A DNA stretch of 64,000 bases from Diplonema papillatum (GCA_030068145.1 JAPJBO010001134.1:1408-65407), one strand, 5' to 3'; positions 3,307-37,230 are shown, counted from the stretch's first letter. Numbers and translations are program-made. Notes: generated by a model not told the origin, from the sequence alone.

Positions 3307-5024
3307 CGCGCGAAGCTGCTGGGTCTTGGCACAGCCGAGGAAGGGGTTGTTTCCCCAGTGCAGTGTTGGCGCTCTCGACGCTTTCCCAGCAGAGCCGACG
3401 AACCCGGATTGACCTCGGCTTCGACTCGAAACTGCGAGCGCCGCCCGCCGACCGATGCGCAGCAAGCTGGCCACGCTGACTGCAAACCCACCCTCCTTTA
3501 AATGACCTCTGTGACCCTTTCGTGGTTGTTTTAAAGCTTCGACAAGGGCAAGGGAAAACCGCTCGTAGCATGCAGTGGGTGGGCAACCTGAGCTCTGGAA
3601 CCGACTGCGAGCTTTTTGACAGCAGCAGCAATAGTACGCTAACGGTGCCGCTGGCCAAGCGCCGATAACCGGAAACGGCCTCCGTGATGGCGATGCCGAG
3701 TCCGCGAAGCTCTGACCTGCACCCGGGGGTACCCCAACTGGATAGCCACCGGGGTAAGCGGGAGCACGGCACCCTTCCGCAATAAGAATGTCCGGCCGAC
3801 AACGGTGCCGAACCCGCCCCTGCAAGTGGGGGGCTGGGAGCAGAGACATCGAAAATCGAGAAAACGGTCTCCCTCCCGCGTTTTTAGTTTGCACTCCGAG
3901 AGGAAACGTTCATGCTCGTCGTTGACCCAGCTGGTCTTGCGCTCTGCTGTCCCGCATGCAAGAAAGTGGGCAGAAGGAGAGAAGTGAGTGTGGGGAAGAT
4001 GCAAACGATGCAACTATAGCCCGCGTCCAGAATAGGGACACCGAGACTGAAACGACCGAGAACTGAGGGAGGAATCGCAAAAGGTGGGGGTCAGGGCAAG
4101 GGGCCGAAGCGAGGGTCCCATACCCTTTGTAGAAGGCTAGTACGAAGGCGAAGGAGGGTGAACAAGTACCTTTGGCGCAGCGAGCAGACGAGTGGTGGCA
4201 CCCGCGGCGAACGTGGTACGACAATAGTAGTATAGTGCTGGGCAGCCGCGTACCAACTTTGCCGTTTTCAGAGTGCCGATTTTTCGCACCAAGGCAGGAG
4301 AGGAAATTCATGTTCAGGCAGAAACACTGGCTTTCAGGGAGGTGTGGAGCTAGGCTTTTTACCTGTCGCCGGTCCAGAGGAGTAAATACGTTGGCGGGGG
4401 CTTCACACGTGCGAAAAAAAGGGCCTGAAACAAACGGTACATTTTCAGAATCCCGCGGTGCCTAGTGTGAAGATTCATCCGCAAACGCTTTCTACTAGCA
4501 CCTAGTTGGAATCTTTGGTGTGAGTCGCAGCTTCCTTTTTGCCGGCAGCTGGACAATCTTCGCTCAGGTCTCCGGCGACAGAATAGGCAGCTTGGGAGTG
4601 CGGGGCATGTATCTTCTCTGTATCTCAAATACCCTCGTCCTTTGACGGAAGAGGGGGGAGAAAAACGTCCAGCTAGAGACTTGGGGTTTGAGAGGATTGG
4701 TCTTGTTTTTGCCAGCGAAGCCAATGAGCGCACATATTAAGCGCACAAACGCGCAGCAGAAGGGCGACTCGACGAGGGGACCGCGCCTCGGGGCCGAGAA
4801 GGGCCGGGAGTGTGTAGGGAAGCGAAAACACCAGATTTTATTTGCAGCTACATCAGAACGCGCGGACAATTACACCACAGGTGCGATCGGGCCAGGCTAG
4901 GACGTGTTCTTCGGAGGCCAGGAGCTGGAGAAGGGGCAGGTAGGCAAGTATATGTCAGAGGAAGATGTACTCTTTCGCAATTTGGCAAGAGTGGACACCT
5001 GCCGTCGTGTGTGTCCAAGCTCTC

Positions 5025-5627
5025 TCAGAAGCGGCGGGTCGTTCTCACGACAGCTACGCGTCGTGGGCGCGGCGCGCATACGGATCGACGAGTCCTGACG
5101 ACGGCAACTACTGGTCTCGTCTGGGTCCGGGTCACTGGGCGTACTCTCCGAGTTCTCACGACGGTGACACGAGGTCTCGTGTGTCTCACTGGCACCACAC
5201 GGCGCGTGCGTGTAACAGGAACTACTCTACGTCGTGTAGTGGTGGCTGGTCTCGTCCGGGCAACGGGTGCTACACGGCGTCTTTTAGTCTGTCCAACACG
5301 TCCATCGTGGTTCAGGTCTTTGTGGGTCAACCGCTCTGCGGTGCCGACAACCTTCCGCATGAGGCCGTTCGACTTTTTGTGCGGGGCGCGCCTTCCATAC
5401 GGCACGGCCCCCACGCGGCCGTCGCCGTTCAAATCACGACCTGTCCTTCTTTCGACGTTGCGTACGCCTGCATTGACTTTGCTACCTGTCGTCCTGCGAA
5501 CGGGTGCCCTCGTCGTTGTTGCTGTAGTTGTTCTGTACACTGGTTTCCTTGCGTACCCCACGCGGCCGTCGTGGTTGAGGTCCTTGCCGGTGCGCGTTTC
5601 GAGCTTGCGGACGAGTTTGTTTAACAT
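5025..5627 (-). CDS. Small basic protein, paralog A of a three-member family. It has three TG(K/R)DLN(H/G)DGRVG repeats (dockerin/EF-loop-like DxNxDGxV) followed by an Arg/Thr/Val-rich tail.
   Basis: ORF 5025..5684. The conserved start MLNKLVRKLETRTG is shared with the ORFs at 17665..18312 and 18989..19588. The ATG is at 5627..5625. Confidence 0.5.
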   Translation of the reverse strand: MLNKLVRKLETRTGKDLNHDGRVGYARKPVYRTTTATTTRAPVRRTTGSKVNAGVRNVERRTGRDLNGDGRVGAVPYGRRAPHKKSNGLMRKVVGTAERLTHKDLNHDGRVGQTKRRRVAPVARTRPATTTRRRVVPVTRTRRVVPVRHTRPRVTVVRTRRVRPVTRTQTRPVVAVVRTRRSVCAPRPRRVAVVRTTRRF

Positions 5628-6039
5628 TTTCTGCCCTTCTTTATTTGCTTTTTTTACGGCTACTTTTCGGTGGAGAAAAAACACCTGCGTGTGGCGTCTG
5701 CTAGCAGCATGTGAACTGAACAGAAACAGTTGCTGTTTCTACGGCAGCTTCTGCCGTTCTGATACGAAGAGGTAGGCTCTTGCGAGTTGCGGGGATTGAT
5801 TGTACCTCCCCGAGTCGGCGGCAATTGCTGTGGCAGTGTCGACAGCTGAACGCCGACGGACCGCGCAGTGTGTGGCAAAGGAGGTGACACGCGTTTGTCC
5901 CGGTGATTCTGAACTGTTTCCCCCACGTGTCGCACTAGGAAGGAATGTTTGTGCGAGGGGATGCGCTCGGTGGTCAGTGATGCCGGAAATACGTAAAAAA
6001 TCAGCTGGCATGCCATGCGGCTTAAGAAACGCTCGGAAT

Positions 6040-9000
6040 CAGGTCACGTTTTTTCTTCTTTGCTGTATTGAAAAATAGGGGAAACGTTGGAAAGGGCCGG
6101 ATGGGCCCGAGCGGACAGAACTGTGAACTTGAAAACTTGGGCTAGTCCACCCCATCCTGGTGGTACCTCAGCCACGGGACCACAGAAGCAGCACAAGGCG
6201 ACGCGGGCACAAACTGGCGAGATGCAAGCCTGTTTTCTTGTACGGCAACGGACGACCCAAAAAGCGGGGACTCCTCCAAAAGTCACTTTTCCGCAGTTCA
6301 AGGCCGGTTGGTGTTGAGTGAAGCTGTTCTATGTTCAGAACACGTTCGGAAAGAATTGAGAGTGGACGGAGACAACTGGAGTTTCATTGAAAACACAGGG
6401 GGGAAATCGGTCTAAATCGTTGTCATTTACCCCCCCTGGCTCATTGTCAAGGGTGTAAGAGCCCCAGACTGCCTGTGAACACTGGCAGACCCCATCCCAT
6501 GGACGGTTCCATACACAACTGAATGCGTCCCAGGGGCGGCCCCGGTGGGGGGGGTGTTTTTTCAAGCGTTATTTGTGGATTAGAAGGTCGGTATTTTAAA
6601 GTCTCCGGTTGACCGTAGAGGCTTGGGTATGGCGGGGGGCTTTTTCTTTTCATATAGAGCCCCCGAAAAGGGCGGGTAAGTTTAGGAAGGGGGTAAAAAC
6701 AACGAAATGGACTGATGCACGATTATCCTTTTGGGGGCTACCGTCGATGCCGAGGGACGATCAGTTTGGTCTTGTGACCTTGGTTTGTTGGTGAGATTTT
6801 GATGACGCGCCTCAGTTAAAACAAAAAGGGGAAGAAAGATACACTGCCACCAGCTAGCTCGCTCTCGTTGGCCGGGTGTTCAGCCCACTTCTCAGCCAGG
6901 TCGCCCACTCGGCAGCTTCGTCTCCCGACTCTTGCACTCGCATCCGTTCGCAGACGCTCTTCCTTGCAGCTTTGTTGCACCGCAAGGGTTCAGTCAGCAG
7001 ATCTTGCAGGTGGCGGCTCTCTGCCGTAGCGTGGTTTTAGATTTTCTTCATCCATGGGGGCGTACACTTTTTTGGAACAGATCAGGGATTTTTGAATGGC
7101 TTTCAGGTTTCGGCTCAAACCTGTGGGCGGGACAACGCAGTCTATGTGGCTGAGCAGGCGGTGCCACATTCTCCGATGCAAAAAACGTTCACTGCACGGT
7201 CATGCTGGGCTGCAGGTCCAGATGGATCCTCTGACCGTTTGGATTCTCCGCATTCACCGCCAGCAATGCTTCGTACCGAAGAATGAGAGTTTGCTTTGCG
7301 TCAATATTGCGTCGCGATGGATTGACTTTCGAAGAGGGCTTCTCATGCATGAAGTCCCCCAATGTCAGGCGCGGTGCTGGCACTTCGGTCGTTTTTGGGT
7401 GCCGTGATTCCTACCAACCTTCAGCTCTCCTTCATGTGTGTGTAGCCGACTCTGCCCAGTTCATGACTTTCTGGCTAGTCATTTTTCCAAGCCGTCCCAA
7501 GTATTCAATGGGCTCGTGCAAAACTTCGGTGGTTAAGTTCACATAGGCTACACGAATCCCTGTTCAGTCACTGACCGCCAGTTAAGGCCCTTCGATGTAT
7601 GTTTCGTTGCCACATCGTCTATCTGGAATGTTGTACATACGTTTGCGGTGTGTTTTCCCTGGATTTCGGTGTTGCAGTACCGCCCTCTAAGCGCTTTCCC
7701 TTTCCCGAGCTGCTTTTGTACAGCCACGTTGTATATTCAGGTTTCCCAAGTTATTTTCAAGTTGCGCCGCCAACTTGGGTGGCTGCCCTTGTCCACGGAC
7801 GCTACGCACGCGGCAGTTGATGTTCCTGGTGTAGGTGTACTCCGAATCACTGAGCACGGTTGATAAGCTGTGCGTACTCATCTAAGGAGACCACGCGCGT
7901 CCGCGTTGTGTTCAGGCCGTTCACCACCGACACGATGTCATCGTAGGTGTGCGACCACACGTGAACGGGGATCACGCTGTACCCAGCGCTGCTGGTCGGG
8001 TCCATGGCTTGGGAGTTGAGGAGGCCGATCAGCTCCGAAACGTTGTGCTGCCCTTGCCACAGACAGTACCGTGCCCCGAGAAGCCAGCCTTGGTACTCAG
8101 GCGTCGACACGTACGTGTTGTTCCCATTCAGGTTGCTGTAGCCGCTGTACGGGTAGTACAGAACGTGCTGCATGCCCGCACGGAAGTATGGAACCGCAGC
8201 TGCGGCGGCGGTGGCCAGATCGGTGGTGCTGCCCATGACGTTGACAACTGCTATGCCGTCTGCTTTGAGGTTGGAGGCCGATTCATTCGTGAAAATGGTG
8301 GCCCACTTATCGGGCATTTCGTCTATGTAAGTGTAGGTGTCGCCGGACACACTGCCGACGAACGTGTCATTCTGCGTCTTGACGCGCTGGAGGTAGTGGT
8401 AAATGGGCGCCGCTACATCACGCGAGGACACCGACAGCGTCCACCCGACCGGAACGGCACCTCTCCGCGGGCATCCGTACCACTGCGCGCTGGTGGCGAA
8501 CGTGTTGTCGAGCCATTGCAAGTTGTCGCCGTCGGTCATCACAAAAGCGATGACGTGCCGGTTGTCGTCGTCTGCTTGTTGCTGTGCGTGCTGCTGCGCA
8601 CTCGGTTTGGGTTGGACGTGTCGGCGTGAGAACTGAGGTACCGCGCCCATGCCGTAGTTCGTCATCGTCGCCACGTTCAGCGCCCAGTCACTCGCAAGGA
8701 GGCCGTTGCCGCTTTCCGAAAGCGCTGAGACCGTGTCGAACTCGTCGGGTCCGTACCCCAAAGTCACCGCGCCTTTGCCTTCGGCGCTGGTGTATTTCAG
8801 GATCTCGGCCACCATCGACGGGACCGGGCTGAAAGACGGCACGAAGTACACGGGGCACCGACAGAACGCCGCGTAGTCCGCAAGACTCGGCCACGTCGCC
8901 GGTTTCTGCAGAATTGACACGCGCTGTCTAAAAGACGTCAGCGGCGTCGCGGCGTAGAAGGCCTCGTACGTCGCATTCCTCGAGTCACCAGCAGGTTTAT

Positions 9001-10300
9001 ACTGCAGTTGCGTCAACGTATCGCACGCAGTGTCCGCGCACACGACGCAAGGAGAAGATGTTTGAGCACGCAACGCACACTGCATCAAACCGACGCCGAC
9101 TGAATCTGTGCCCATGGTCACCTCCACGAAAGAATTGGCCAAGTTGGCGGCCATGGCCTCCTTCATGACGTTGGCGAAGCTCGACTCGGTCCGGAAGGTG
9201 ACGTTCCAGTACAGCTCGAGCTCCCGCGCCCAGAGGCTCCACCCGGCCTGCCCGTCGGGAGTGTTCGCGGTGAACAGCCACGGCTTCGTCTGGGCCGCCA
9301 CGCCCTGCAGCGAGTGGACGGCCAGCACCTCCCCGGGCGACATGCCGGTGGTGTTCACCAGCAGCAGCTCGGCGGACGCGTTGGGCCCGGCGCTGGCGGC
9401 CGGGAAATAGTACTGCGTCCACTCGTCGGAAGCCGAGGCGAGGCTGGCAACGCAGCAAACCGCTGCGAGACTGGTTCGCATCGCGACCTGAAAGGCGCTC
9501 TGATAATCCCCGAGGCGGCTGCGTGTCTTGCAAAGTGCTGTCCACGCCCGGTTTAGTTTCTCCTTTAGTGTGGTTACCGCGTGTAGCGAGGCTGGTCCGG
9601 ATCCCGTGACTTCGGGAATAGGGTTGGCTTGAGGATTTGAGGATACATGGGTGTTTTCGTTCCTATATGTTGCTTTTCGTCTGAAAGCTTTTGAGTCCAG
9701 CAGTGGTTGCGAGCCCATCGATTGCTTGATCGGGGGTAGGCGACCTCTCACAGTTTCACTGAGGGAGTTGATGCACCACGAAAGTCAATAAGAGGTTGGG
9801 TTAAATGCACAGAATCTGTGGCGATAGTCTGGCGCGGTTATCTCTTTGCACGTGATGTGTCATGCTTTCGCCTCTTTTAGCTCGTCTTGATCGTCGCGCT
9901 CAGGCGCGCGCTTGGTGTCTCGCTTCTTCTTCGACTGCTCGCCCAGGTTCATCGGTTGCGCTTCGATTTCTGCTTCTTCACGGCGCTTGGGCGATGCTGC
10001 GCTTCGACGGGCGCTCCACTCACGCCGTTTTGTTCGGCTCCGACGTAGAGCTCGTTCGCTGCTTCTTCGCTCGCGTCGGTGCCGTCTTTTTGACCCTCGC
10101 CGCTGGTTTCGATGTTGATTCGATAAGAGACCTTCATACAGCCAGCAGGGTGTGGTTGGTTCAAAGAAAAAGTCAAGCTTGACCTCGCCCAAGCTCGTTT
10201 ACATTCCCTTGCGCTGGTGATATCAACGTGTTCTTACTTCTCCCTTTCTTCAAGGCAGTTCTCGCCAGACAATACCGAGCAGAAAACTCCTAGTTTCCTG
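6040..10300. repeat. Segmental duplication unit A (about 4.2 kb), paired with unit B at 13060..17200
   Basis: Long blocks are shared with unit B, with indels in the non-coding parts. Examples: 6070-6560 versus 13090-13880, 7050-7170 versus 14240-14360, the 7847-9751 ORF versus the 14897-16588 ORF, and 9750-10300 versus 16980-17200. Confidence 0.6.
7847..9481 (-). CDS. Secreted, heavily N-glycosylated protein of unknown function, copy A (signal peptide MRTSLAAVCCVASLASASDE)
   Basis: ORF 7847..9751. The real start is probably the M at 9481..9479, which begins a hydrophobic signal peptide. Multiple NxS/T sequons are present. It is about 95% identical to the ORF at 14897..16588. Confidence 0.55.
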   Translation of the reverse strand: MRTSLAAVCCVASLASASDEWTQYYFPAASAGPNASAELLLVNTTGMSPGEVLAVHSLQGVAAQTKPWLFTANTPDGQAGWSLWARELELYWNVTFRTESSFANVMKEAMAANLANSFVEVTMGTDSVGVGLMQCALRAQTSSPCVVCADTACDTLTQLQYKPAGDSRNATYEAFYAATPLTSFRQRVSILQKPATWPSLADYAAFCRCPVYFVPSFSPVPSMVAEILKYTSAEGKGAVTLGYGPDEFDTVSALSESGNGLLASDWALNVATMTNYGMGAVPQFSRRHVQPKPSAQQHAQQQADDDNRHVIAFVMTDGDNLQWLDNTFATSAQWYGCPRRGAVPVGWTLSVSSRDVAAPIYHYLQRVKTQNDTFVGSVSGDTYTYIDEMPDKWATIFTNESASNLKADGIAVVNVMGSTTDLATAAAAAVPYFRAGMQHVLYYPYSGYSNLNGNNTYVSTPEYQGWLLGARYCLWQGQHNVSELIGLLNSQAMDPTSSAGYSVIPVHVWSHTYDDIVSVVNGLNTTRTRVVSLDEYAQLINRAQ

Positions 10301-10603
10301 CCCGATTGCTAGGAACCCAGTGAGGCGCGTTGGCTTGCTTGTTCTGCATGCGCAGATGCAGTGCATACCTATGTAGTCGGCAATTGTGCGAGCGCTGCTG
10401 AATGATTACTTCTCTTACTGCCTGTTCTATCCTAAGCAGTAGCAACGCACCACTCTGCAGCGTTCTTGCACCAGGACGTATGACCCCCATCCGAAAGCAA
10501 AAGAAGAAAAGGAAACGACTTTTGGCCTGACACCTCGAGTCAAATCGTGAAGGAAACGAGGGCAACCCACGCACGAGAATACGACTCGTATGCATTGTAT
10601 ACC

Positions 10604-10648
10604 GGGGGGGTTGCAAGAACGTGCTTGGAATGGGTATGTGCTCAACAC
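10604..10648 (+). repeat. Truncated copy 1 of a roughly 170 bp SINE-like dispersed element (core TTGCAAGAACGTGCTTGGAATGGGTATGTGCTCAACAC)
   Basis: The first 42 bp are identical to copy 2 at 12586. The copy is followed by a G7 run. Confidence 0.5.
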
Positions 10649-10679
10649 AGGGGGGGAGACTGAAATCTAAACGTTAATG

Positions 10680-10800
10680 TTTAGGCAGGGTCTCATGCAT
10701 GCAGGGGGGGTCGGGGAATCGCCCGCCAGTGATGCTAGGATACATAACCGTATCCAGGATAAGTATCCCTATTTCTCCGAAAATGCAAGGATACGTGTTG
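10680..10800. repeat. Left arm of an inverted-repeat pair, rich in GGATAC/GTATCC sub-repeats. The partner is at 12448..12548.
   Basis: The reverse complement of 12448-12548 (cagtgatgctggatacgtgaggatacg...) aligns with 10700-10800 (cagtgatgctaggatacataaccgtatcc...). Confidence 0.45.
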
Positions 10801-12447
10801 GATGCGTGGTGTACAGACAGTAAGGGTAGTGAGTAATACGTGCAGCAGGAGGTCATCAAAATACACGTAAGCCCAGGTGCAAATGAAAATGCAGCGCAAA
10901 TGTCCACCGCCAAGCCGGCGGCGAAGCCAGCCGGAAAGCCAGCCCCGAAGCCAGCAGTTAAGCGCAAGGCAGGAGATCCGATGTGGGGCTATGAGCGCAG
11001 GTGTCCCTGAAATCTCTCTTCCCGGGGGTTTAGAAAAAAAAGACGACCCCCCTTGGACGAGTTCAGCCCGATATAATTAGAATTAGATCATACCGGGAGC
11101 GCGTATGATATGTGCCCGCTGCTCCCGAGAAGACACGGAATGGAAAGATTGGTCACGCAATCGTCAAAATACCACCTCGGATCCCAAAAAAGGTTGGCCT
11201 CCATGGCCCCTCCTTTTGCACCTCGCTTCACCAGACAAATTACCATCACCCAATGAACGCACATCAGAACTGGGATGGCAGGTACTGAAGAACAGGGATG
11301 CTGCAAAATTGGCTGTGCGAACACCTGGAGAAAGGTTGCTTTGTTTCCTCAGCCCGTGTCGCGTGTGCTCGAAGTGAAGAAGAGACTGGCACAAGAGGAA
11401 TGTATCGCCTCCAGGAGTGTGGTGCCATGCACACCACACCTTCGGACGAAGCGCACACGACTACGACTGCAGCGGCAACAACTACGACTGTAAGGTGCAA
11501 GGTTCCAAAAAGCGACGGCAAAGACTACTTAGACAAGCGCCTTCAAGCTGCCCGAATAGGATGCTTGTTGTGAATGCTCCTGTCTATGCACCCCCAGAAG
11601 TCTCTGCTTCGGATGCTACAAACCGTGCCTTTCGGCGGAGCAGAACCCATCTGCCTTCGATACCCTCTGGAAGTTGCAAATTCGGGCAAAAGTGCCGACC
11701 ACGACTGCGGCGAGAACAATGTCACACGCATTCTTGAACGAGGTTCCGACACTGCCGTTGACATGGAATACAATGAGAAGGAGATCAATGCAGCGTTTTG
11801 CGATTAAAGAATTCGGATGCAGCTGCAGAGAATTCTTCAGGAGCCTTCTGATAGCCGCCAAACGTCATCTTCCTGAGTAGTAGGTGCCCTGAAAAAAGAG
11901 CCTAAGCCCACAGGGTCTAGGCCCTCGTGGTGCCCCTAGTGGTATAGTACGGTGACGCAGGGGAAAGCTGTGGCAGTCCATACACCCACCATCCCCGCCT
12001 CTAATTTGGCCAATCAAAGAGGATTTTAATCCGGAACATGCCTGAAAACTCTGTTCCCGGGTGCTACCAACAAACTGGCGACCCCCTCGATGGCAAAACA
12101 TGAAAATGCGTTTTTCGCAAACCCTAATTTTGGGATGTGGCCCGCCAGATATCGAGCTTCGGAGCCCGGCGAGGGTCGGAATGAAAAGATCGGATTCAAA
12201 ACAGTTCAAAAACGCCCTCGGGCCAAAGAAAATGACCCGGGGTTGACCTTCAGATGGTATTTTCCATATTTGAACGGTCGCCATGAGAATGACTGATATA
12301 GGTTGAGCAGTTATTCGGTTATCAGTGTCTTCTGCTTCGCGTATTCTAGAACATACGCGTTCTATATAGGTTGAGCAGTTAAGAAGTGGCAGTCATAGTT
12401 TGAACTTGGTATGCAGCAAGGCCTCGTAGTAAGGCTACCCGACAGTA

Positions 12448-12548
12448 TTGCGGGCACGTATCCATCGAGGACGGATGCGTATCCGGATATGTATCCGTAT
12501 CCTGATTCTCGAAATCCCACGTATCCTCACGTATCCAGCATCACTGCC
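12448..12548. repeat. Right arm of the inverted-repeat pair (partner 10680..10800)
   Basis: See the left arm. A G7 run follows this arm, and then the SINE-like copy 2. Confidence 0.45.
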
Positions 12549-12570
12549 CAAGGGGGGGAAAATGTTTCTT

Positions 12571-12745
12571 GAGTTTGAAGGGGGGATTGCAAGAACGTGC
12601 TTGGAATGGGTATGTGCTCAACACCGCACTGGTCCCGTCTGCGCCGTGTTTCGGTCCTTTAAGCCACGAACATATAAGGCGGACCATCATCAGCGCGGAA
12701 CCTGAGTGTCTGCAGACAGGACAGCGGTGTGAGCCTGGTTTGTCA
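12571..12745 (+). repeat. SINE-like dispersed element, copy 2 (the most complete, about 175 bp)
   Basis: It shares a conserved core with 55021-55190, running from GAGTTTGAAGGGGGG through TTGCAAGAACGTGCTTGG, GGTCCTTTAAGCCACG and CCATCATCAGCGCGGAACCTGAGTGTC to GCAGACAGGACAGCGGTGTGAGCCTGG. Confidence 0.5.
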
Positions 12746-12902
12746 GACGGCTGTTCGTAGCTCGTCACAGCCAGGACCACCCGTGCTACTAGAGCACAGG
12801 CGAATCCGTCGCCCCTACAACCGTGTCTGAGCAATCAGTTAAAAAACTCAGGGCACTCGCCCTGATGGTGACTGCGACTCGCTAGGCAGCACTGACTTGT
12901 GT

Positions 12903-13012
12903 GAGTTTGAAGGGGGGGAAAATCTTAGTTCAGGCGCGACGGGGGAGGGGGATCGCATGAACGTGCTTGGTATGGATAGTGCTCAACACCGCAATGGTCC
13001 TTTAATGCAGGG
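12903..13012 (+). repeat. SINE-like dispersed element, copy 3 (diverged and 3'-truncated)
   Basis: Motifs shared with the other copies: GAGTTTGAAGGGGGGG, GCATGAACGTGCTTGGTATGGATAGTGCTCAACACCGCAATGGTCC. Confidence 0.45.
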
Positions 13013-13059
13013 GGGGGCCACCCACGCCTCAGCTAGATGTTTCGGTAAAAACATCCGCG

Positions 13060-16000
13060 ATAGTAAAACGTCCTCTCCCCCTTTGCTGTATTTAAAAACA
13101 GGGGAAACATTGGAAAGGGCCCCGAGCGGACAGTCGAACGCAGTCTGAGAGATTAGATTGTCAAGCGGCACTCAACTGCTGCGAACCCAGCCCGCTAATG
13201 CGTTCGACGACCTGATGAGTCTCATGATTCTGCAATTCCTTCATTGACTATCGCGACTGGCCGCGGTCTTCATCGTTCCCAGAGGACTGTGAACTTGAAT
13301 TATTGGGTCAGTCCACCATCTTGAGGTACCACCAGGGGTCATCTTGGTGGTATCGCAGTTCACGGGACCACAGGAAGCAGCACAAGGCGACGTGGGCACA
13401 ACTGGCGCGATGCCTGATTTCTTGTACGGACGACCCAAAAAGCGGGACTTCTCTAAAAGTCACTTTTCCGCAGTTCATGACCGGTTGGTGTTGAATGAAG
13501 CTGTTCGATGTCCATCGAACATTTTCGGAAACAATTGAGTGTGGAGGTTCAGTGAGAACACGGGGAGGAAATCAGTCTAAATCGCTGGCATTATCCCCCA
13601 TCCCGGGATAGGGTCCATCCTATCAAGACTACCGGAAGAGCGTTTGAATGTGTAGGGGGTGGTCTTCTGGTAAAAGTTCACAAGACATCAGAGCATACTC
13701 GAGATTTCTAGAAACAAAAGCAAGCAATTCTAGAAAAGGATAGAGGCCTGGATGGTTGACCCTCCTTACGGCTTTCCGCAAGGCACACGGTGGCTCATTG
13801 TGAAGGGTATAAGAGCCCTGTGAACACTGGCAGACCTCATTCCATGGACGGTTCCGTACACAACTGAACATGTCCCAGGGGCGGCCCTACGGGGGGCTGT
13901 TCCACATAGGAAATCCCGAAAAGGGCTGGTAAATCTAGGGAGGGGGATAAAAACAACGAATTGGACTGATGGGGCTACCGTCGATCCCGAGGGACGATCA
14001 GTTTGGTCGTGTGACCTTGGTTTGTTTGGTGAGACTGCTGAAACAAAAATGGGAAGCAAGATGCGGGTTCAGCTTTTTGTGTTTTTCCTTTGCCGACATC
14101 TGGTGCCTTTGGGCCGCCCGGGTATGGACTCTTCCTCATCTCGTCTTTTAGTCTCTGTATGTAGAGCAGACGAATAGGGGGTTAAAAGCTTTTTTTGCGT
14201 TTCCGGCAATATGCGCTCAGTAAGTTGCCCCTTTTGCTTTCTCCATGTGGGCGTACACTTTTCTGGAACACAGATTAGGGATCTTTGAATAATAGCTTTT
14301 CAGGTTTCGGCTCAAACCTGTGGGCGGGACAACGCAGTCTATGTGGCTGAGCAGGCGGTGCCACATTCTCACTGCACGTTCATGTTGTGCTGCAGGTCCG
14401 GGTTTGCGGATAGATCCACTGTCCGTCTCGTTGGATTCTCCGTATTATTTGCCAGCAATGCTTCGGACCGAAGAACGAGAACTTGTTTTGCGTCGGCAGG
14501 CGAAGAGTGGGCTCCCCATTCATGAATTCCGCCAATGCCAGGCACAATACCCGTTTACGTGTGTGAAGGCGACCCAGTTCATGACTTTCTGGTCCAAGTT
14601 TTCAATGGGCTCTGTGCAAAACTTCGGTGATCAAGTTCGCTAGGCTACACAAATCCCTGTTCAGTCACTGACCGAGTTTACCCCCAGTTAAGGCCCTTCA
14701 ATGTATGTTTCGCTGCCGCGTCGTCTGTCTGGGGTATGCACATAGCGCGTTTTCCTGGTTGTTTTCGTCCGTCGGCACCGCCCTCCAATCGCTTTCCTTT
14801 TCCCGAGTTGCTTTTGTACAGCCACGTTGTATATTCAGGTTTCCCACGTTATTTTCAAGTTGCGCCGCAAACGGCGGCTGCCATTGTCCACGGACGCTAC
14901 TCACGCGGCGGTTCATCCTGGTAAATATCTGGCTTAGCACGATTGATGAGCTGTGCGTACTCATCCATGGAGACCACGCGCGTCCGCGTTGTGTCCAGGC
15001 CGTCCACCACCGACACGATGTCATCGTAGGTGTGCGACCACACGTGGACGGGGATCACGCTGTACCCAGCGCTGCTCTCCGGGTCCATGGCTTCTGAATT
15101 GAGGAGGCCGATCAGCTCCGAAACGCTTTGCTGCCCTTGCCACAGACAGTACCGGGCCCCGAGAAGCCAGCCTTGGTACTCAGGCGTCGACACGTACATG
15201 TTGTTCCCATCCAGGTCACAGTAGCCGCTGTACGGGTAGTACAGAACGTACTGCATACCCGCACCGAAGTATGGAGCCGCAGCTGCGGCGGCGGTGGCCA
15301 GATCGGTGGTGCTGCCCATGACGTTGACAACCGCCATGCCGTCTGCTTCGAGGTTGGAGGCCGATTCATTCATAAAAATGCTGGCCCACTTATCGGGCAT
15401 TTCGTCTATGTAAGTGTAGGTGTCGCCGGACACACTGCCGACGAACGTGTCATTCTGTGTCTTGACGCGCTGGAGGTAGTGGTAAATGGGCGCCGCTACA
15501 TCACGCGAGGACACCGACAGCGTCCACCCGACCGGAACGGCACCTCTCCGCGGGCATCCGTACCACTGCGGGCTGGTGGCGAACGTGTTGTCGAGCCATT
15601 GCAAGTTGTCGCCGTCGGTCATCACAAAAGCGATGACGTGCCGGTTGTCGTCGTCTGCTTGTTGCTGTGCGTGCTGCTGCGACTTCGCTGAGGTGCCCGG
15701 GACTGCACTCGGTTTGGGTTGGACATGCCGGCGTGAGAACTGAGGTACCGCGCCCATGCCGTAGTTCGTCATCGTCGCCAAGTTCAGCGCCCAGTCACTC
15801 GCAAGGAGGCCGTTGCCCCTTTCCGAAAGCGCTGAGACCGTGTAGAACTCGTCGGGTCCGTACCCCAAAGTCACCGCGCCTTTGCCTTCGGCGCTGGTGT
15901 ATTTCAGGATCTCGGCCACCATCGACGGGACCGGGCTGAAAGACGGCACGAAGTACACGGGGCACCGACAGAACGCCGCGTAGTCCGCAAGACTCGGCCA

Positions 16001-17200
16001 CGTCGCCGGTTTCTGCAGAATTGACACGCGCTGTCTAAAAGACGTCAGCGGCGTCGCGGCGTAGAAGGCCTCGTACGTCGCCTTCGTCGAGTCACCAGCA
16101 GACGTATACTGCAGTTGCGTCAACGTATCGCACGCAGTGTCCGCGCACACGACGCAAGGAGAAGATGTTTGAGCACGCAACGCACACTGCATCAAACCGA
16201 CGCCGACTGAATCTGTGCCCATGGTCACCTCCACGAAAGAATTGGCCAAGTTGGCGGCTATGGCCTCCTTCATGACGTTGGCGAAGCTCGACTCGGTCCG
16301 GAAGGTGACGTTCCAGTACAGCTCGAGCTCCCCCGCCCAGAGGCTCCACCCGGCCTGCCCGTCGGGAGTGTTCGCAGTGAACAGCCACGGCTTCGTCTGG
16401 GCCGCCACGCCCTGCAGCGAGTGAATGGCCAGCACCTCCTCCGGCGTCATGTCGGTGGTGTCCACCAGCAGCAGCTCGGCGGACGCGTTGGGCCCGGCGC
16501 TGGCGGCCGGGAAATAGTACTGCGTCCACTCGTCGGAAGCCGAGGCGAGGCTGGCAACGCAGCAAACCGCTGCGAGACTGGTTCGCATCGCAAACTGAAA
16601 GGGGCTCTGAAAATACCCGAGGCGGCTGCGTGTGCTGCTGGTGTCGCTTTCAAAGTGCTGCCCACACCCGGTTTTGTTCTCCTTTGGTGTGGTCCGTTAG
16701 TTGTGAACCGTTTTTCCACCGCATCTCTTCGTGTGCATCTCCGGGACAACCGCGTGTAGCGAGGTGGCAAAGTTGACCCGTGATTAGAGTTGGCATTCTA
16801 ATGCTACTACTAGGATACCCGGCGCTTTGGGTCCTATATGTTGCTTGTCGTCTGAGCCTTTGAGCCCAGCAGTGTTTGCGTGCCTACATCAATTGTGCAT
16901 TGCTGGGTCTGCTGTTGATGTCTCCTTTCAGTTGCGAGCCGTCGATTGCTCGAGGTAGTCTCAGGGGTAGGCGACCTCTCACAGTTTCACCGAGGGAGTT
17001 AATGCACCACGAATCGTCGATAAGAGAAATTCACACAGCCAGCAGGGTGTGCTTGGTTCAAAGAAAAAGTCAAGTTTGACCTCGCCAAGCTCGTTTCCCC
17101 GGGGTAAGGCAGTCATTGCGCTCGTGATATCAGTTACAAAGACGTGTTCGTAGTTCTCGCCAGCCAATACGAAGAGCAGAAGCTCCTAGTTTCCTGCCCG
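13060..17200. repeat. Segmental duplication unit B (partner of 6040..10300)
   Basis: See unit A. Unit B carries two extra insertions of about 200-270 bp relative to A. Confidence 0.6.
14897..16588 (-). CDS. Secreted N-glycosylated protein, copy B (563 aa). It has the same signal peptide as copy A and a slightly longer C-terminus.
   Basis: ORF 14897..16588 starts directly at MRTSLAAVCC. It is collinear with copy A, apart from a small AVPGTSAKS insertion and the C-terminal extension. Confidence 0.55.
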   Translation of the reverse strand: MRTSLAAVCCVASLASASDEWTQYYFPAASAGPNASAELLLVDTTDMTPEEVLAIHSLQGVAAQTKPWLFTANTPDGQAGWSLWAGELELYWNVTFRTESSFANVMKEAIAANLANSFVEVTMGTDSVGVGLMQCALRAQTSSPCVVCADTACDTLTQLQYTSAGDSTKATYEAFYAATPLTSFRQRVSILQKPATWPSLADYAAFCRCPVYFVPSFSPVPSMVAEILKYTSAEGKGAVTLGYGPDEFYTVSALSERGNGLLASDWALNLATMTNYGMGAVPQFSRRHVQPKPSAVPGTSAKSQQHAQQQADDDNRHVIAFVMTDGDNLQWLDNTFATSPQWYGCPRRGAVPVGWTLSVSSRDVAAPIYHYLQRVKTQNDTFVGSVSGDTYTYIDEMPDKWASIFMNESASNLEADGMAVVNVMGSTTDLATAAAAAAPYFGAGMQYVLYYPYSGYCDLDGNNMYVSTPEYQGWLLGARYCLWQGQQSVSELIGLLNSEAMDPESSAGYSVIPVHVWSHTYDDIVSVVDGLDTTRTRVVSMDEYAQLINRAKPDIYQDEPPRE

Positions 17201-17664
17201 ATTGGTGTGACGGAGTGAACGTGTTGGCTTGCGTGCGCAGATGCAGTGCAAACTATGAATTCGGCTGCTGCGCAAACGCCGCCGAACGGCTACTTATTCT
17301 ACTGACTGTTCTGCAGCAGCAACAACGCACCACTTTGCGGCTTTCTTGCACCAAGACTGATGACCCCGTCCGAAAGCAAAAGATGAATGGGCAGCAATTT
17401 TGGCCTGACCTCGAGTCAAATCGTGAAGGAAACGAAGGCAACCGTAGAACGAGAGAGAAGGCGAACGAGGGGCAGGGCTCTGGCAGGGCATGTGCCTACC
17501 ATTTCAAGGCTAGTGGAATGAGTGCGCAGCAAAAGATCGGGGCAATTGTGTTCTGCAAACAGCGTGCGGTGAAATAATATCGAGGAATTATTTTTGTTTT
17601 GAAACTGTTGCGGCGGACGGGTGCGGGTTAGAGTCGCACCCGCACGGCATCAACAAACAGTTCA

Positions 17665-18219
17665 TCAGTAGGTGCGGGTTGTTTTGCGGGTTTTGGTCAC
17701 GGTCACTGGTCGGCGACTGCGTGTGACAGGACGTGTTCTCCGGGTCTTCACAACAGTAGTTGCCGGTCTAGTGCGTCTTACGGGGGCTCGTCGCGTGCGT
17801 ACAGGAACAGCACGAGTCCGAGTGGTCGTCGTTTTCGTCGTTCGCCTCGTTGCAGGAGCCACGACGCGACGTCTCCTGCCCTGCCCAACACGTCCATCGT
17901 GGTTCAGGTCTTTGTGGGTTGCCCGCTCTGCGGTGCCGACAACCTTCCGCATGACACCGTTCGACTTTTTGTGCGGGGCGCGCCTTCCATACGGCACGGC
18001 CCCCACGCGGCCGTCGCCGTTTAAATCACGGCCTGTCCTTCTTTCGACGCTGCGTACGCCTGCATTGACTTTGCTACCTGTCGTCCTGCGAACGGGTGCC
18101 CTCGTCGTTGTTGCTGTAGTTGTTCTGTACGCTGGTTTCCTTGCGTACCCCACGCGGCCGTCGTGGTTGAGGTCCTTGCCGGTGCGCGTTTCGAGCTTGC
18201 GGACGAGTTTGTTCAACAT
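17665..18219 (-). CDS. DLNxDGRVG-repeat basic protein, paralog B
   Basis: ATG at 18219..18217 (MLNKLVRKLETRTGKDLNHDGRVG...). It is nearly identical to paralog C. Confidence 0.5.
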   Translation of the reverse strand: MLNKLVRKLETRTGKDLNHDGRVGYARKPAYRTTTATTTRAPVRRTTGSKVNAGVRSVERRTGRDLNGDGRVGAVPYGRRAPHKKSNGVMRKVVGTAERATHKDLNHDGRVGQGRRRRVVAPATRRTTKTTTTRTRAVPVRTRRAPVRRTRPATTVVKTRRTRPVTRSRRPVTVTKTRKTTRTY

Positions 18220-18988
18220 TTTCGCTGGATACTCCGCTTTTGGGTGGCTTTTCTTTTTGCGAGGTAGCAGGAGAGATTCCCTGAGTGAATGTATTCTGCT
18301 GTACACTCCCACGGCATATGCGAGAGCTACGAACTCATGCTCTGCGACCCAGGAGGTGGCTACCAGCTGATGAAGACGTTCACCCGGATGATTGCATCAC
18401 GTATGTCGTCCTCAAGGTGGGCAACAAACTACGAGCTATAATGGGTTGCATGTGCTAGTTTTTGCACGATCCCGAACGCATACTTGGTGCTCGCTCAAAA
18501 CATTCGCTTCGTTGAATGCACGTGATTGACGCAACGCTGGCGCTCTGAAGGCAAGGAAAATGGAAAAGGAAACAACTTGGGCTGACACCTCGAGTGGAAT
18601 CGTGATGTCAAGTTCCTCCCCGCGAAACGGTTTCCTTGTTTTGAGGCCTCGGAGATAGAAGAGAGAGACTTAGGACCAAGAAACTGTTTGCGGTAGACGG
18701 GTAACCTCAGAACGAGAGAGGAGGCGAAGGAGGGGTAGGGCTCTGGCAGGGCATGTGCCTACCATTTCAAGGCTAGTGGAATGGGTGCGCAGCGAAAGAT
18801 GGGGACAAATTGTGTTCTGCGGCTGTATTTTGCACGCAGCCATTTTTCCCAAGGACACTCTGGACGGTTTCGGCTTGAGAATGTTGTGGCGAAGGTGAGG
18901 AGGCGGGATTAGAAAAGTAGTTCGTCCCTTTGCAGTGTGCGGAAGGAGAACCGAAAGCTCGTCGCACCCGGCATCAACAAACAGTTCA

Positions 18989-19543
18989 TCAGTAGGTGCG
19001 GGTTGTTTTGCGTGTTTTGGTCACGGTCACTGGTCGGCGACTGCGTGTGACAGGACGTGTTCTCCGGGTCTTCACAACAGTAGTTGCCGGTCTCGTGCGT
19101 CTTTCGGGGGCTCGTCGCGTGCGTACAGGAACAGCGCGACTCCGAGTGGTCGTCGTTTTCGTCGTTCGCCTCGTTGCAGGAGCCACGACGCGACGTCTCC
19201 TGCCCTGCCCAACACGGCCATCGTGGTTCAGGTCTTTGTGGGTTGCCCGCTCTGCGGTGCCGACAACCTTCCGCATGACGCCGTTCGACTTTTTGTGCGG
19301 GGCGCGCCTTCCATACGACACGGCCCCCACGCGGCCGTCGCCGTTTAAATCACGGCCTGTCCTTCTTTCGACGCTGCGTACGCCTGCATTGACTTTGCTA
19401 CCTGTCGTCCTGCGAACGGGTGCCCTCGTCGTTGTTGCTGTAGTTGTTCTGTACGCTGGTTTCCTTGCGTACCCCACGCGGCCGTCGTGGTTGAGGTCCT
19501 TGCCGGTGCGCGTTTCGAGCTTGCGGACGAGTTTGTTCAACAT
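18989..19543 (-). CDS. DLNxDGRVG-repeat basic protein, paralog C (tandem copy about 1.3 kb from B)
   Basis: ATG at 19543..19541. It is more than 95% identical to B at the protein level. Confidence 0.5.
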   Translation of the reverse strand: MLNKLVRKLETRTGKDLNHDGRVGYARKPAYRTTTATTTRAPVRRTTGSKVNAGVRSVERRTGRDLNGDGRVGAVSYGRRAPHKKSNGVMRKVVGTAERATHKDLNHDGRVGQGRRRRVVAPATRRTTKTTTTRSRAVPVRTRRAPERRTRPATTVVKTRRTRPVTRSRRPVTVTKTRKTTRTY

Positions 19544-19974
19544 GTTTCGAACTCTTGCGTTTAGGTGGTTTGTTTCCTTTGGTAACACTCTACCTGATAA
19601 TAGAGTGAGGGTTTGACCAATTGTGACCCCCCTTCCAGCTAACCGTAGCTACGGTAGCATGCAAATGATTTTCCGGTCCCGCTCGTGTTGCATTGGTGAG
19701 AGTAGTCAGCAAGCCAATGTGCACCACAATGTGCCAGATTTTAGTTACGCGACACCGAAGGGGTCGACTCGTGACGGTTGCAAACGTTGCTGCGGGGCTG
19801 GTGGCAAGTTTACAGTCAGAGTCGGAATCAGATTCGAGATCGTTGTCAGAGTAATTCTCGCTGATGCAGGGTCTGATTTCGTGCCTAGCGACAGAGTACG
19901 AGCGCTCGGCGAAAGGCCGGCGGGGGCGAGACTGGAGGTAGCTGTTAAAGTTCGGGAAACAGTAAAGCTCGGGC

Positions 19975-23007: not shown

Positions 23008-24607
23008 TCACAACCTGAATGTGACGTTTTAGTTATAAAATTCTGCTTGCGCCGTACATCGCCACGGTCTATCCGGTATCCCTCTCCTGGAGCATAAGAA
23101 CTCTTTTTTTGTGCTGTCTTGCACGCTACGGCATTGACACGTACAAAGGAGGTAGTCACCTGAGTGACGAATGCAGCCCATCGCCACAGAAGCTCTGCAT
23201 TCTACCTTCAAACTTTCGTGAGACCAAGGGTTTTGGCGAAGGTGTTGAAGACGAAAGCGCGGAGCAGGACCATTGCTATCCTGTCGTCGGCTGAGGAGGG
23301 TCGGGTCGTTGCGCACCGTCGGCGCTCCGCGGTACCTCACCCACGGGTATGAGTTCCGCCCGGTCTTTCGGGCAGGCGAGGAGACCATGCGGATGCTCGA
23401 GACCCAGCTAATGGCCTGCAGACACGGGTTTTTGTGGCGTGGCGCGGGGGATAAACAGTTTCTCCGGATAAGACGGTGTGCGCGGGGTGCGGGCAGGAAG
23501 AGAGACGAGTTGGCGTACAGGGACCATCTCTCCGAGGAGTTTCCGGTCGCCTCAATACAACCACGTACTTCTAAGGCGGGTGTAGGTCGTTCCGTCGGAG
23601 GCACGTTGCGGGCCGCGGCCCCGTCACCGAGGGTGACGGCGTCGGTGTTGACACAACCGGGGCCGATCTGGCTGGCGGGCGAGCGCGTTTCGCGGGGGAG
23701 CACCGTCTTGACGCGTCGCGGGCTCTCTTCTTCTTGGCAATTGCACGGCCTACGGCGGCGGCTAGCGTCTGATGGGAAACTTCAGCGCCCACTGAAAGAA
23801 AGGAATACGTGCGCCCTGACCACCAGCGGGTGTGAATGCAGATTGTATCTGAAGGTGATGTGCACTTGCGAGACGCGGCCACCACCACCACCACTAACAC
23901 AAACATCGCGCGACGGGTGAAACAGTGTCGCAGGAAGCGTGAGGACTAGCCAGAGCCTCGAAGGACCTGCGACAACGCAGCGTCCGGACAGTTGAGAGGG
24001 ATAGTGGGACGAGTTGGAGAGTGCGCTGATGCGCGGACGAGGGCAAGCCCCTCCCGCGTTGATGATGCACCCACAATAGGTCGACGGCGAAATGAGAAAA
24101 GGCGCGGGGAGAAATACGTTCAGTACACTTGAATTAATCACGAGGGGAAGGAGCATTTGAACACGATCTACGGCAAGACAAAAAAAAAAGCAAAAGGTGG
24201 TTTGGTACAGGTACTAGGGGACAGCCCTCGATGAGGGACGTGTTGGAGAAGACGAGGGAAAGGGAATCATTTGACACTGGGTGGCGCCGGTCTCTTGGCA
24301 GAAACGAAGCCTCCAAGACGGTGCGAAGCTCGGTAAGGTGAGACCAGCGCGGGATACCAGCAGGCCGAGTATCAGCCGGGTTGTATCCATTTGTGAGCAG
24401 GCTGGTGCCACTACTGATGGAGGGTGAGCCCGTCGGGCCAGCGAGAGGAACTTCGGTTGCACACCGTCGACTCACGACAAAATACATCGATATCAACTCA
24501 ACATTGAGATACTCATTTTTGGAGCATTGATTCTGCAGCAACCGGGCGAGCTGCTGCCCAGCGGTTGCTTTCACGCTGCAATTCAGGGTTCCTTTCTTTC
24601 GCTCCAT

Positions 24608-24608
<1 letters not shown>

Positions 24609-24650
<42 letters not shown>
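24609..24650. repeat. (CA)21 microsatellite immediately 5' of the retrotransposon
   Basis: Direct read: cacacaca... Confidence 0.95.
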
Positions 24651-24652
<2 letters not shown>

Positions 24653-24694
24653 GGGGAAAACCATAACGCACTCAACACATACTCAAACGGTAAA

Positions 24695-25933
24695 ATGACT
24701 ACGAACAACCTCCACGCGGTCCCCCTGGGGCCCGAGGGAATACCCTCGGGCAGCGAAAGGTTCGAAGCCGAAGTGCGTGTGGTGCACCTACCCGAAACCC
24801 GTGCATACACTCTGCGTCTTGAGACGTTGAAGGGGCGGGTAGGTGCGTACGAGCGCCTGGTCGAGCAGCTTGGGTGGGCTGGGGCCAGAGTGCGGATCAA
24901 GAAGGGAGTCGCGCACATCGAGGCGACGGAGCCACCACCAGTTGCCAAGGTGCGCGTTGGCGAGGAGGAAGGCGAAATCGTCGACGTCGAGGCGCGCGAC
25001 CGGGCCCGGCAAGAGGCGCACCGACAGGAGCGCATCCAGCGAACCCGCCAAGAGCTGGACAGCCTCGCCGCTGCAGGACCGCCGAAACGCCTGCCGGACA
25101 ACGGGGCCCCCAGGGGACCCACGTACTCCAAGCCCGAGTTCCTCGCCGAGTTCGGGAAGAAGAAGGGGGAAGACGAGTGGCGCTGGGCGCTCAAAGCGCA
25201 TGAAGAAGTGCGGAAGAGGCAGCTGACGAGACTGCGGGAGCAGCTGAAGGAGCTGTCCCCGACGGACGACGCGGAGATGCGAGAAGAGAGGCGCGAGCAG
25301 GGGAACCAGGACGAGACGGCAGCGGCCTGGGAAGCCTGGGCGCAGCAGCAGAGCAGGCAGCGAGAGGCCTGGCAGAAGGAGCGAACTGCCGCGCGAGAGG
25401 CTTGGGAGGGCGCGTTCGAAAAGCGCTTCCGAAGCTGGGCTGACGCCCAGACGCAGATAGCCACCAAGCGCGAAGACAACGCCTACACGCGCCAGATAGG
25501 GTGGATGGCGGAGACGGAGCAGAAGCTGGACCGTATTACGCAGGAGATGTGCGCCAGAATCGACTCAGCGCTTGGGAGAATTGCACAGGTCGCACAGCAA
25601 TCTGCCGCCGCAGGCGTGCCCGCGCGGACAGACGAGCCCGTACCTGCAATCCAACCGACTCCACCCCCTGCCGAGCCGCCGGTACCTTTAGCCGAAAACG
25701 CCGCGCAGGAGCCCCTCCCGGCCCAGCCCCTCACCACAGCTTCCAAGAAAGGGAAGAAAGCTAAGAAGGAGGCTGACGAAAAGGAGCTGGCCGAGCAGTT
25801 GAAGCAGCTCAACGAAGCTACAAAGAGACCGGTCGCCGGAAAGGCGAAGGGCGGGAAAGGCGGGGGTAAGCAGCAGCTCCTGACTGACATGGTGTCAACC
25901 AACCGCTACAGCCCCATCGATAAAAAGTAGGGG
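24695..25933 (+). CDS. LINE ORF1: coiled-coil (E/R/Q-rich) protein with a Lys-rich basic C-terminal tail
   Basis: ATG at 24695 (MTTNNLHAVPL...). The track ORF beginning at 24527 reads the upstream (CA)n as HTHTHT. The ORF ends at the TAG at 25931-25933, and ORF2 follows in the same reading frame. Confidence 0.6.
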
Positions 25934-25975
25934 GCTGGGCGTGCCGGACAAGAACTGACACCAAGCAAGGAAAAC

Positions 25976-36730: not shown

Positions 36731-37230
36731 CTGTGTGTTCGTTGAAAACTTTGTATGTGGTCATGTCCTGCCTACCCGAACCGCAGGCTGGTTATCCGCC
36801 GTTGTGGCCAGAATACCGGTAACTCCTCCGGCACAGTTTCTTTTTTAGGAGAGGCCGCTGCTCTTGTTTACGTGATGACGCATCGCAAGCATCGAACAGC
36901 CTGAAGAAGGGTGAGCACTTTGGTGCTTAGGCAGGCATGCATGCTTCATACTAGCGGCTTAGGCAGGCATGCATGCTTCATACTAGCGGGTATTATGCTT
37001 AGGCGGATGCCAGCATCAAACAGGGGGCGGAGTAGTTTGCAAATTTCAAGAGCGTGTGGTGCTTGCGAAGGGGACACAATAAATGGCCCGTAGAAACAAG
37101 TAGCATCAGGTCTTCGGGGGATCTTTGTGTAACGTAGAAGCATGCGCCACTGGAGGCCATTTGTTTTGGGCATCAAGTCGCCGCAGTGGCAAGCTATCTA
37201 AGCTGTCATGCGGGGGGAGAGAGTGCATAC

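Follow-up and report, generated by a model that had tools for sequence, protein, structure and literature searches.

Three open reading frames (ORFs) on the minus strand of a 64,000-nucleotide stretch of DNA from the marine protist Diplonema papillatum (GCA_030068145.1 JAPJBO010001134.1:1408-65407; the whole stretch is called the window) raise the question of whether they are genes and, if so, what their small, very basic products could do. An earlier note on this DNA had pointed to these ORFs, here copies A, B and C, as a family with three calcium-loop-like repeats per protein and an Arg/Thr-rich tail. We saw that the three are best described as hyper-basic, unannotated members of an undescribed family of helix-loop repeat proteins, with a calcium-type loop in an unusual arrangement. 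The explanation that best accounts for the observations taken jointly is that of three real, expressed minus-strand genes, with repeat units that would bind Ca2+ in the manner of half an EF-hand and a tail that would bind a polyanion; we give this explanation an even chance.

All three ORFs are present and intact from ATG to stop (Table 1), with products of 21–23 kDa that are predicted to be largely disordered. As the earlier note had it, the N-terminal start is conserved: the first in-frame ATG of A, B and C is the Met of MLNKLVRKLETRTG (MLNKL). Copies B and C do form a near-identical tandem pair, their proteins being 98% identical over the full length and their DNA 97.8% identical. In the alignment, residues 1–113 show 96–99% identity between A, B and C; the tail of copy A is longer, carries many substitutions and in-frame indels, and has ~50% identity to the other tails. 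A conserved N-terminal domain beside so diverged a tail suggests a mosaic, in which gene conversion or strong constraint would act on the repeat domain and rapid, slippage-prone evolution on the tail. At the DNA level copy A matches B and C only at 5289-5631, with 96–97% identity; the identity of the duplicated neighbour genes is lower, 91.5%.

The motif TG(K/R)DLN(H/G)DGRVG, which the earlier note had counted three times in each protein, holds in part. Three DLNxDGRVG loops per copy are there, but the TG(K/R) lead-in fails for the third unit, which reads THKDLNHDGRVG. The loop core, though correctly recognized, is an incomplete unit; a near-invariant upstream Glu and a helix belong to it as well, bringing it to ~23 aa: an amphipathic stretch followed by E-x2-[T/F/L]-[G/H/N]-x-DLNxDGx[IV]G, with a T-G/H turn between the helix and the loop. 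Each copy has three units matching h-h-x-x-h-E-x2-[T/F/L]-[G/H/N]-x-D-[LI]-N-x-D-G-x-[IV]-G, and the loop DLN(H/G)DGRV, with a hydrophobic residue at position 8, is found in all nine. A search of the six-frame translation of the 64-kb window for the pattern D[LIVM]NxDGx[VIL]G gave nine matches, every one of them inside copies A–C. Among 203 distinct units picked by the loop pattern alone, loop positions 1, 3, 5, 6 and 8 are near-invariant, and position 9 is Gly in the unit consensus; in 99% of the units a Glu (Glu −6) precedes the first Asp by six residues, and 96% have Gly +8. The conservation of Glu −6 is partly circular, as the recruiting profile contained these residues.

We used AlphaFold2 to model residues 1–120 of copy B and a compact 88-aa rotifer member of the family (P0172). 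The mean predicted local distance difference test (pLDDT) scores, 52.9 and 53.4, respectively, make only the secondary structure usable. Both models have a 9–14-residue helix right before each loop, with disordered spacers; neither model shows a helix that follows a loop or units that pack against each other, at a pLDDT of only ~53. A mitochondrial presequence at the N-terminus (MLNK.../MLRR...) was considered and set aside, as this segment is repeat unit 1, conserved with rotifers.

No curated family covers these proteins, in agreement with the earlier note; no Pfam model covers either the unit or the whole protein. The Pfam matches of the window proteins are to Dockerin, EF-hand and FG-GAP models only, confined to the nine-residue loop and below threshold: the best, Dockerin_1, has E 0.02-0.035 and 14.7–15.5 bits against a cut-off of 22.9, and EF-hand_5 has 11.3–11.7 bits against 25.9. 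In a six-unit member of the family (P0008) the summed Dockerin_1 score is above the cut-off. The best, also sub-threshold, matches in the PDB were EF-hand 4 of CaBP1 and dockerins, again in the loop only. A literature search over ~8 million papers with the motif strings found no publication.

The family of copies A–C is not confined to the D. papillatum genome. When 1.84 billion cluster representatives were searched exhaustively with the domain profile, 285 matched at E<=1e-3, in two classes. Class 1 consists of small proteins (58–450 aa) with 2–6 units of the form (L/I/M)(I/M/V)-N-x-(L/V/A)-E-(K/R)-(A/T)-T-(G/N/H)-x-D-L-N-x-D-G-R-(I/V)-G-G, separated by spacers rich in Gly/Pro/Tyr/Gln/Asn/His. 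All named class 1 members are from bdelloid rotifers (Rotaria species, Adineta vaga, A. ricciae, A. steineri); some further members are on animal-like contigs. A tandem array of four genes with Gln/Tyr/Gly/Pro/His-rich spacers (L005:6081-8288) was found on a metagenomic contig (JGI 3300066132, Ga0609847_1097) with 63% GC and intron-less single-strand ORFs; a neighbour gene has a Tc-38 domain (36.6 bits, above the Pfam cut-off), which indicates, on this marker, a kinetoplastid-type euglenozoan. When 24 sequences were aligned, unit 1 began at Met1 in every Diplonema and rotifer protein, and the three units were in register. Judged by these comparisons, the small helix-DLNxDGRIG repeat proteins are an undescribed family, with neither a name nor a Pfam model; our literature search found nothing on it. 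A metagenome scan showed, among the matches listed, only neutral, rotifer-like versions.

Bdelloid genomes have many paralogs (L001:896-1615, L004, L007/L008), both compact ones of 84–93 aa and longer Gly/Pro/Tyr-rich forms. The deposited gene model of one rotifer member (P0003) appears to borrow a 4-nt first exon for its Met.

Class 2 consists of long bacterial proteins that are arrays of PF07483 (W_rich_C) domains; strong PF07483 matches were seen in P0029, P0030 and P0102. Over its last ~20 positions this domain is the same element as the unit, x-E-x2-F-x-Q-D-L-N-G-D-G-x-I-G. In the bacterial arrays all 27 of 27 units have Glu −6, and 26 of 27 have Gly +8. An hhalign comparison of the eukaryotic and bacterial units gave 98% probability with 22 columns in register, a partly circular figure, as the bacterial units were recruited by the profile. 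The window proteins themselves had no match to PF07483 even at E<=1, and a scan of 185,579 prokaryotic genomes produced 555 pattern matches with no confirmed relative. Two proteins, P0011 and P0015, have Trp-containing modules of ~125 aa with the same terminal element and no PF07483 match.

What sets the Diplonema members apart is their charge. Taken whole, proteins A–C carry a net charge of +43 to +48, and their isoelectric point (pI) is ~12. Their tails (71–87 aa, net charge +25 to +30) contain 31–33% Arg, 18–30% Thr, 13–24% Val and 8–10% Pro; there is no Asp or Glu in those of A and B and a single Glu in that of C. The protamine-like composition that the earlier note had read from the tail is thus borne out. 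Arg/Thr-rich spacers together with a polycationic tail of 60–87 residues occur only in the Diplonema members, i.e. A–C and an annotated paralog on another contig (DIPPA_62312/62313, P0001; two identical entries of 160 aa, 48–53% identity, same architecture), which is not mentioned in the supplements of the Diplonema papers that we checked. Copies A–C lack the neutral spacers of the rotifer-type members, and this marks them as a Diplonema-specific variant.

In the explanation that we prefer, each unit would be half of an EF-hand, an entering helix with a loop and no exiting helix. Loop residues 1, 3 and 5, together with the position-7 carbonyl, would be the Ca2+ ligands. In place of the absent ligand at position 12, Glu −6 would step in, either the one on the unit's own helix or that of a neighbour. 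Glu −6 is the candidate for the completing ligand because it is the sole conserved acidic residue outside the loop and the acid at position 12 is absent; the earlier note had already remarked on the missing position-12 Glu. Its comparison with DxNxDGxV calcium loops also stood: with Asp1, Asn3, Asp5, Gly6 and a hydrophobic position 8 the loop fits Dx[DN]xDG. According to Rigden et al., Dx[DN]xDG binds Ca2+ in almost the same way in each of 16 structural contexts (PMC3123361). In disordered proteins, motifs resembling EF-loops bind Ca2+ at ~100 uM and alter the compaction of the chain (Newcombe et al. 2021, PMC8391695). The spacers and the tail, both rich in Arg and Thr, would form a disordered polycation binding a polyanion, most plausibly nucleic acid, and calcium occupancy could alter compaction or binding.

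Weighing against this explanation are observations on the calcium site, given here, and on the genes themselves, given below with the question of relics. In all 16 contexts a further acidic ligand comes after the motif and 'in not a single example' before it (PMC3123361); taken as a rule, this would count against Glu −6 as a ligand. The conservation of this residue owes something to recruitment, as said, and with a pLDDT of 53 in both models there is no geometry backing its role. The Diplonema units have K/R at −1 and +6, and such cationic surroundings would argue for weak Ca2+ affinity at best. The PDB was searched by sequence and by profile, the queries being the unit, the whole domain and one W_rich_C protein, and no significant related structure came up.

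One may therefore ask whether the unit is a calcium site at all. It could instead be a structural or peptide-recognition element serving partner binding or self-association, with a convergent likeness to EF-hands and dockerins; we regard this as a serious alternative, though less probable than calcium binding by half EF-hands. Besides the ligand-after-motif rule, the basic setting and the sub-threshold Pfam scores of the window proteins, it is favoured by the rarity of an acid at loop position 12 (none in the window proteins, two of 285 units family-wide), by Gly rather than a ligand-bearing residue at position 9 and by the 81 of 118 family proteins without Asp or Glu after the last unit, among them A, B and P0001, where the acid-free stretch is 61–88 residues long. 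On the other hand, positions 1, 3, 5, 6 and 8 match a calcium loop exactly and are near-invariant, Ca2+ binding was seen for such loops in all the structural contexts studied (PMC3123361), the same element ends the domain of bacterial proteins auto-named RTX-like or serralysin, and it is difficult to see why a turn would need a near-invariant Glu.

One could also speculate in the opposite direction. The unit may be a new, self-sufficient Ca2+ site of reversed topology, the first Dx[DN]xDG context whose extra acidic ligand, Glu −6, stands before the loop; such sites, strung as beads on a disordered string and followed by the polycationic tail, would make a calcium-switchable binder or condenser of nucleic acids or other polyanions. 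We consider this bolder version unlikely. If it is right, the patchy spread over bdelloids, euglenozoans and bacterial W_rich_C proteins might reflect horizontal transfer of a minimal calcium module.

Returning to half-EF-hand proteins made by three real genes, we have to consider the genes. It is improbable, in our estimate, that copies A–C are untranscribed or non-functional duplicates, or decaying relics of a gene located elsewhere (DIPPA_62312/62313), still open by chance; nevertheless, a number of observations point this way. A search of the public protein collection found none of the three proteins, either as an exact sequence or at the level of 90% clusters, and the deposited proteome and the EukProt transcript-derived set lack them too. 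Their codon bias is ~0 versus 0.27–0.36 bits/codon in the neighbours, with A at 24–26% of third positions versus 12%; such atypical usage is a caution against taking A–C as typical well-expressed genes. The copies are too similar for a robust demonstration of selection: purifying selection rests on just 8–12 substitutions per comparison, and the high N-terminal identity may be due to gene conversion rather than selection. Furthermore, homology between the copies ends abruptly 4–6 nt upstream of the ATG (5628-5631 in A, 18220-18224 in B, 19544-19549 in C), as expected of copied fragments of coding sequence without a native upstream region; the 5′ flanks of A, B and C are mutually unrelated, even those of B and C despite their common downstream blocks.

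Other observations argue against relics. All three copies are intact; the tail of A, ~50% diverged and with indels, is still open and has kept its composition. Of 19 substitutions, 11 fall on third codon positions (p=0.024), an excess that we take as weak but consistent evidence of coding constraint. With only 48–53% identity to P0001, A–C are not recent copies of it. They also lie in sense orientation within a one-directional gene cluster: the minus-strand run consists of a Pyr_redox oxidoreductase, copy A, two GxGYxYP genes, B, C and an MFS transporter, consistent with the one-directional, probably co-transcribed gene clusters reported for D. papillatum (PMC10161547). By the exact matches of neighbour ORFs to D. 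papillatum DIPPA_16414 (563 aa, GxGYxYP glycoside-hydrolase-like) and DIPPA_16416, the window is nuclear DNA of this species.

Upstream of each copy there is a pyrimidine-rich tract 45–70 nt before the ATG, followed by an A-rich stretch with AG. This arrangement is compatible with a candidate trans-splice acceptor.

As to the strand, the earlier note had observed a long mirror ORF opposite each copy, and all three mirror ORFs are present. That one of them is a real gene, or that both strands code, is very improbable; several comparisons indicate that the minus strand is the coding strand. Homologues were found for the minus frame only (P0001, E 4e-18; the rotifer proteins P0002, E 2.4e-10, and P0003, E 2e-5), whereas the mirror product has no homologue among the same 5.8 billion proteins and no Pfam match. 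The Rotaria socialis homologue, encoded in DNA of 32–36% GC with an intron between units 1 and 2, has stops in all antisense frames. The edge of homology at the ATG, the register of the units from Met1 and the minus-strand neighbours, to which a mirror gene would be antisense, argue for the same strand.

What speaks for a mirror gene is that in each of the three copies no stop interrupts its frame over the length of the ORF, that only 1–3% of synonymous recodings keep it fully open and that its ratio of non-synonymous to synonymous substitution rates (dN/dS, omega) is as low as that of the minus frame. The potential mirror stop sites, though, are all in the N-terminal part common to the copies, so that the open frame counts as one event, not three. 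The low omega is automatic, as the mirror and minus ORFs have common third codon positions. Thus the comparison of dN/dS between paralogs, which the earlier note had proposed for deciding the strand, has no power (omega 0.27 in the minus frame versus 0.22 in the mirror frame): omega is ~0.22–0.33 in both (0.22–0.26 in the mirror frame) and >=1 in the other two plus frames, which are all that dN/dS excludes. Codon-usage likelihood was also tried as a strand test and rejected, with both frames at ~0 bits/codon.

Least probable of all, and close to negligible, is that the ORFs belong to a transposable element or other selfish repeat, the origin named in the earlier note as fatal to its proposal: the copies are dispersed, not collinear with the surrounding 7-kb duplication, and a long interspersed nuclear element (LINE) lies in the same window, but this LINE, the only transposable element there, runs on the other strand and starts ~5 kb past copy C, and A–C have no terminal repeats, no transposable-element protein domains, homology confined to the coding sequence, no match in a phage collection (tblastn), and homologues that are ordinary small genes on rotifer and euglenozoan-type contigs.

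Table 1. Features of the window, with positions counted from its first nucleotide
Feature	Position	Strand	Basis or remark
Copy A, coding sequence (CDS), 200 aa + stop; most diverged paralog	5025..5627	minus	ORF, alignment, P0001 tblastn E 1.5e-21
Copy B, CDS, 184 aa + stop	17665..18219	minus	ORF, alignment, P0001 E 4e-18, rotifer P0002/P0003
Copy C, CDS, 184 aa + stop; tandem partner of B	18989..19543	minus	ORF, alignment, self-blastn
Copy B unit 1 (residues 2-24): helix + Glu10 + loop D16-G24	18148..18216	minus	Translation; AlphaFold helix 2-13; consensus
Unit 1 equivalents	A 5556-5624; C 19472-19540	minus	Translation
Copy B unit 2 (residues 50-73): helix + Glu59 + loop D65-G73	18001..18072	minus	Translation; AlphaFold helix 50-62; consensus
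Unit 2 equivalents	A 5409-5480; C 19325-19396	minus	Translation
Copy B unit 3 (residues 88-112): helix + Glu98 + loop D104-G112	17884..17958	minus	Translation; AlphaFold helix 88-101; consensus
Unit 3 equivalents	A 5292-5366; C 19208-19282	minus	Translation
Copy B Arg/Thr/Val/Pro tail, 71 aa, net +26, no acidic residue	17668..17880	minus	Composition
Tail equivalents	A 5028-5288 (87 aa); C 18992-19204	minus	Composition; fast-diverging, in-frame indels
Block downstream of B, candidate shared 3′ untranslated region element	17437..17556	minus	Self-blastn, 90.9% identity to 18700-18820 downstream of C
Mirror ORF over B	17672..18370	plus	Judged non-coding by-product
Mirror ORFs over A and C	4810-5775; 18996-19616	plus	ORF scan
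Segmental duplication, ~7.1 kb	6058-10648 vs 13081-17454		75-92% identity
GxGYxYP genes (DIPPA_16412/16414)	7847-9751; 14897-16588	minus	91.5% identical
Dispersed repeat, ~45 nt	10604-10648; 12580-12624; 12947-13000		86-98% identity
LINE-type retrotransposon	24527-31768	plus	
LINE ORF1	24527-25930	plus	No Pfam match
LINE ORF2, 1930 aa	25976-31768	plus	OTU protease, Exo_endo_phos, RVT_1, RNase H/RVT_3
Major vault protein, two ORFs	37198-38511; 38978-39907	minus	Vault repeats upstream; Vault_2/3/4 + shoulder domain downstream

The segmental duplication carries both GxGYxYP genes, and copy A is not collinear with it (self-blastn). The ATG-started GxGYxYP copy has a hydrophobic, signal-peptide-like N-terminus, judged by eye; the dispersed repeat lies between the two genes. 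The LINE coincides with a strong positive AT skew at 24–32 kb. Genes for a major vault protein and an HMG-box protein follow further along the window; the two vault ORFs are probably two exons separated by an intron of ~470 bp. A scan for bacterial promoters and terminators gave background-level counts, a result irrelevant for a eukaryote.

If copies A–C are genes as we propose, at least three genes absent from the public protein sets searched would be added for the reference diplonemid, in whose genome small low-complexity genes would then be seen to escape annotation. The undescribed family would have a precise 15-residue signature, E-x5-D-L-N-x-D-G-x-[IV]-G, which would link small disordered proteins of eukaryotes with the W_rich_C domain of bacteria, itself uncharacterised. 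Should Glu −6 be the seventh ligand, it would break the ligand-after-motif rule of all 16 known Dx[DN]xDG contexts; the ~23-residue unit makes this question accessible to a direct test with synthetic peptides. What is unusual about the Diplonema version is that calcium-type loops go together with a tail about as basic as a tail can be; this pairing suggests calcium-modulated binding of a polyanion. Diplonema is noted for its elaborate processing of RNA and for the very large quantity of DNA in its organelles; a link of such binding to either would be speculative. D. papillatum has been described as genetically tractable (PMC8611851).

Compared with known systems, the tail resembles protamine-like, arginine-rich nuclear proteins in its Arg content, near absence of acids and predicted disorder, and its Thr could be phospho-acceptors; it differs in being also rich in Val and Pro, and neither Pfam nor protein database searches showed homology to basic nuclear protein families. 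Type I dockerins have a loop followed by a helix, an Asp at position 12 and a duplicated 22-residue module on extracellular enzymes. The Diplonema unit shares with them (PF00404) the loop consensus DxNxDGx[VI]; its helix, however, precedes the loop, its position 12 is non-acidic, and the proteins carry neither an enzyme nor a signal peptide. With an EF-hand such as EF-hand 4 of CaBP1 (VDLNGDGRVDFEEF) it has in common the entering helix, the Dx[DN]xDG loop and the hydrophobic position 8; unlike the EF-hand, it lacks Glu/Asp at position 12, has Gly at 9, has no predicted exiting helix, shows no pairing of sites in the low-confidence models and scores below the Pfam cut-off.

The terminal element of the bacterial W_rich_C domain matches the Diplonema unit, but the Diplonema proteins are without the ~85-residue Trp-rich beta-module and contain no Trp, whereas the W_rich_C proteins are bacterial, 600–3000 aa long and in some cases auto-named RTX-like or serralysin by JGI. 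We found no structure or functional study of W_rich_C; the one publication in which PF07483 turned up is a domain-architecture survey. Among described modes of action, that of Excalibur-like motifs (PMC8391695), which are also EF-loop-like motifs in disordered chains, comes closest; the proteins carrying them are acidic, while the Diplonema proteins are extremely basic and have the motif with a conserved preceding helix and Glu.

The likeness extends furthest in the small helix-DLNxDGRIG repeat proteins (e.g. UniRef A0A815B7Y9), which, like copies A–C, are small, have the ~23-residue unit with Glu −6, loop and Gly +8, three units from Met1 and spacers of low complexity, lack a signal peptide and occur as tandem gene copies. 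In the rotifer and kinetoplastid-type members the tails are short and the spacers neutral, rich in Gly/Pro/Tyr/Gln/Asn/His; in the Diplonema members these parts are rich in Arg, Thr, Val and Pro.

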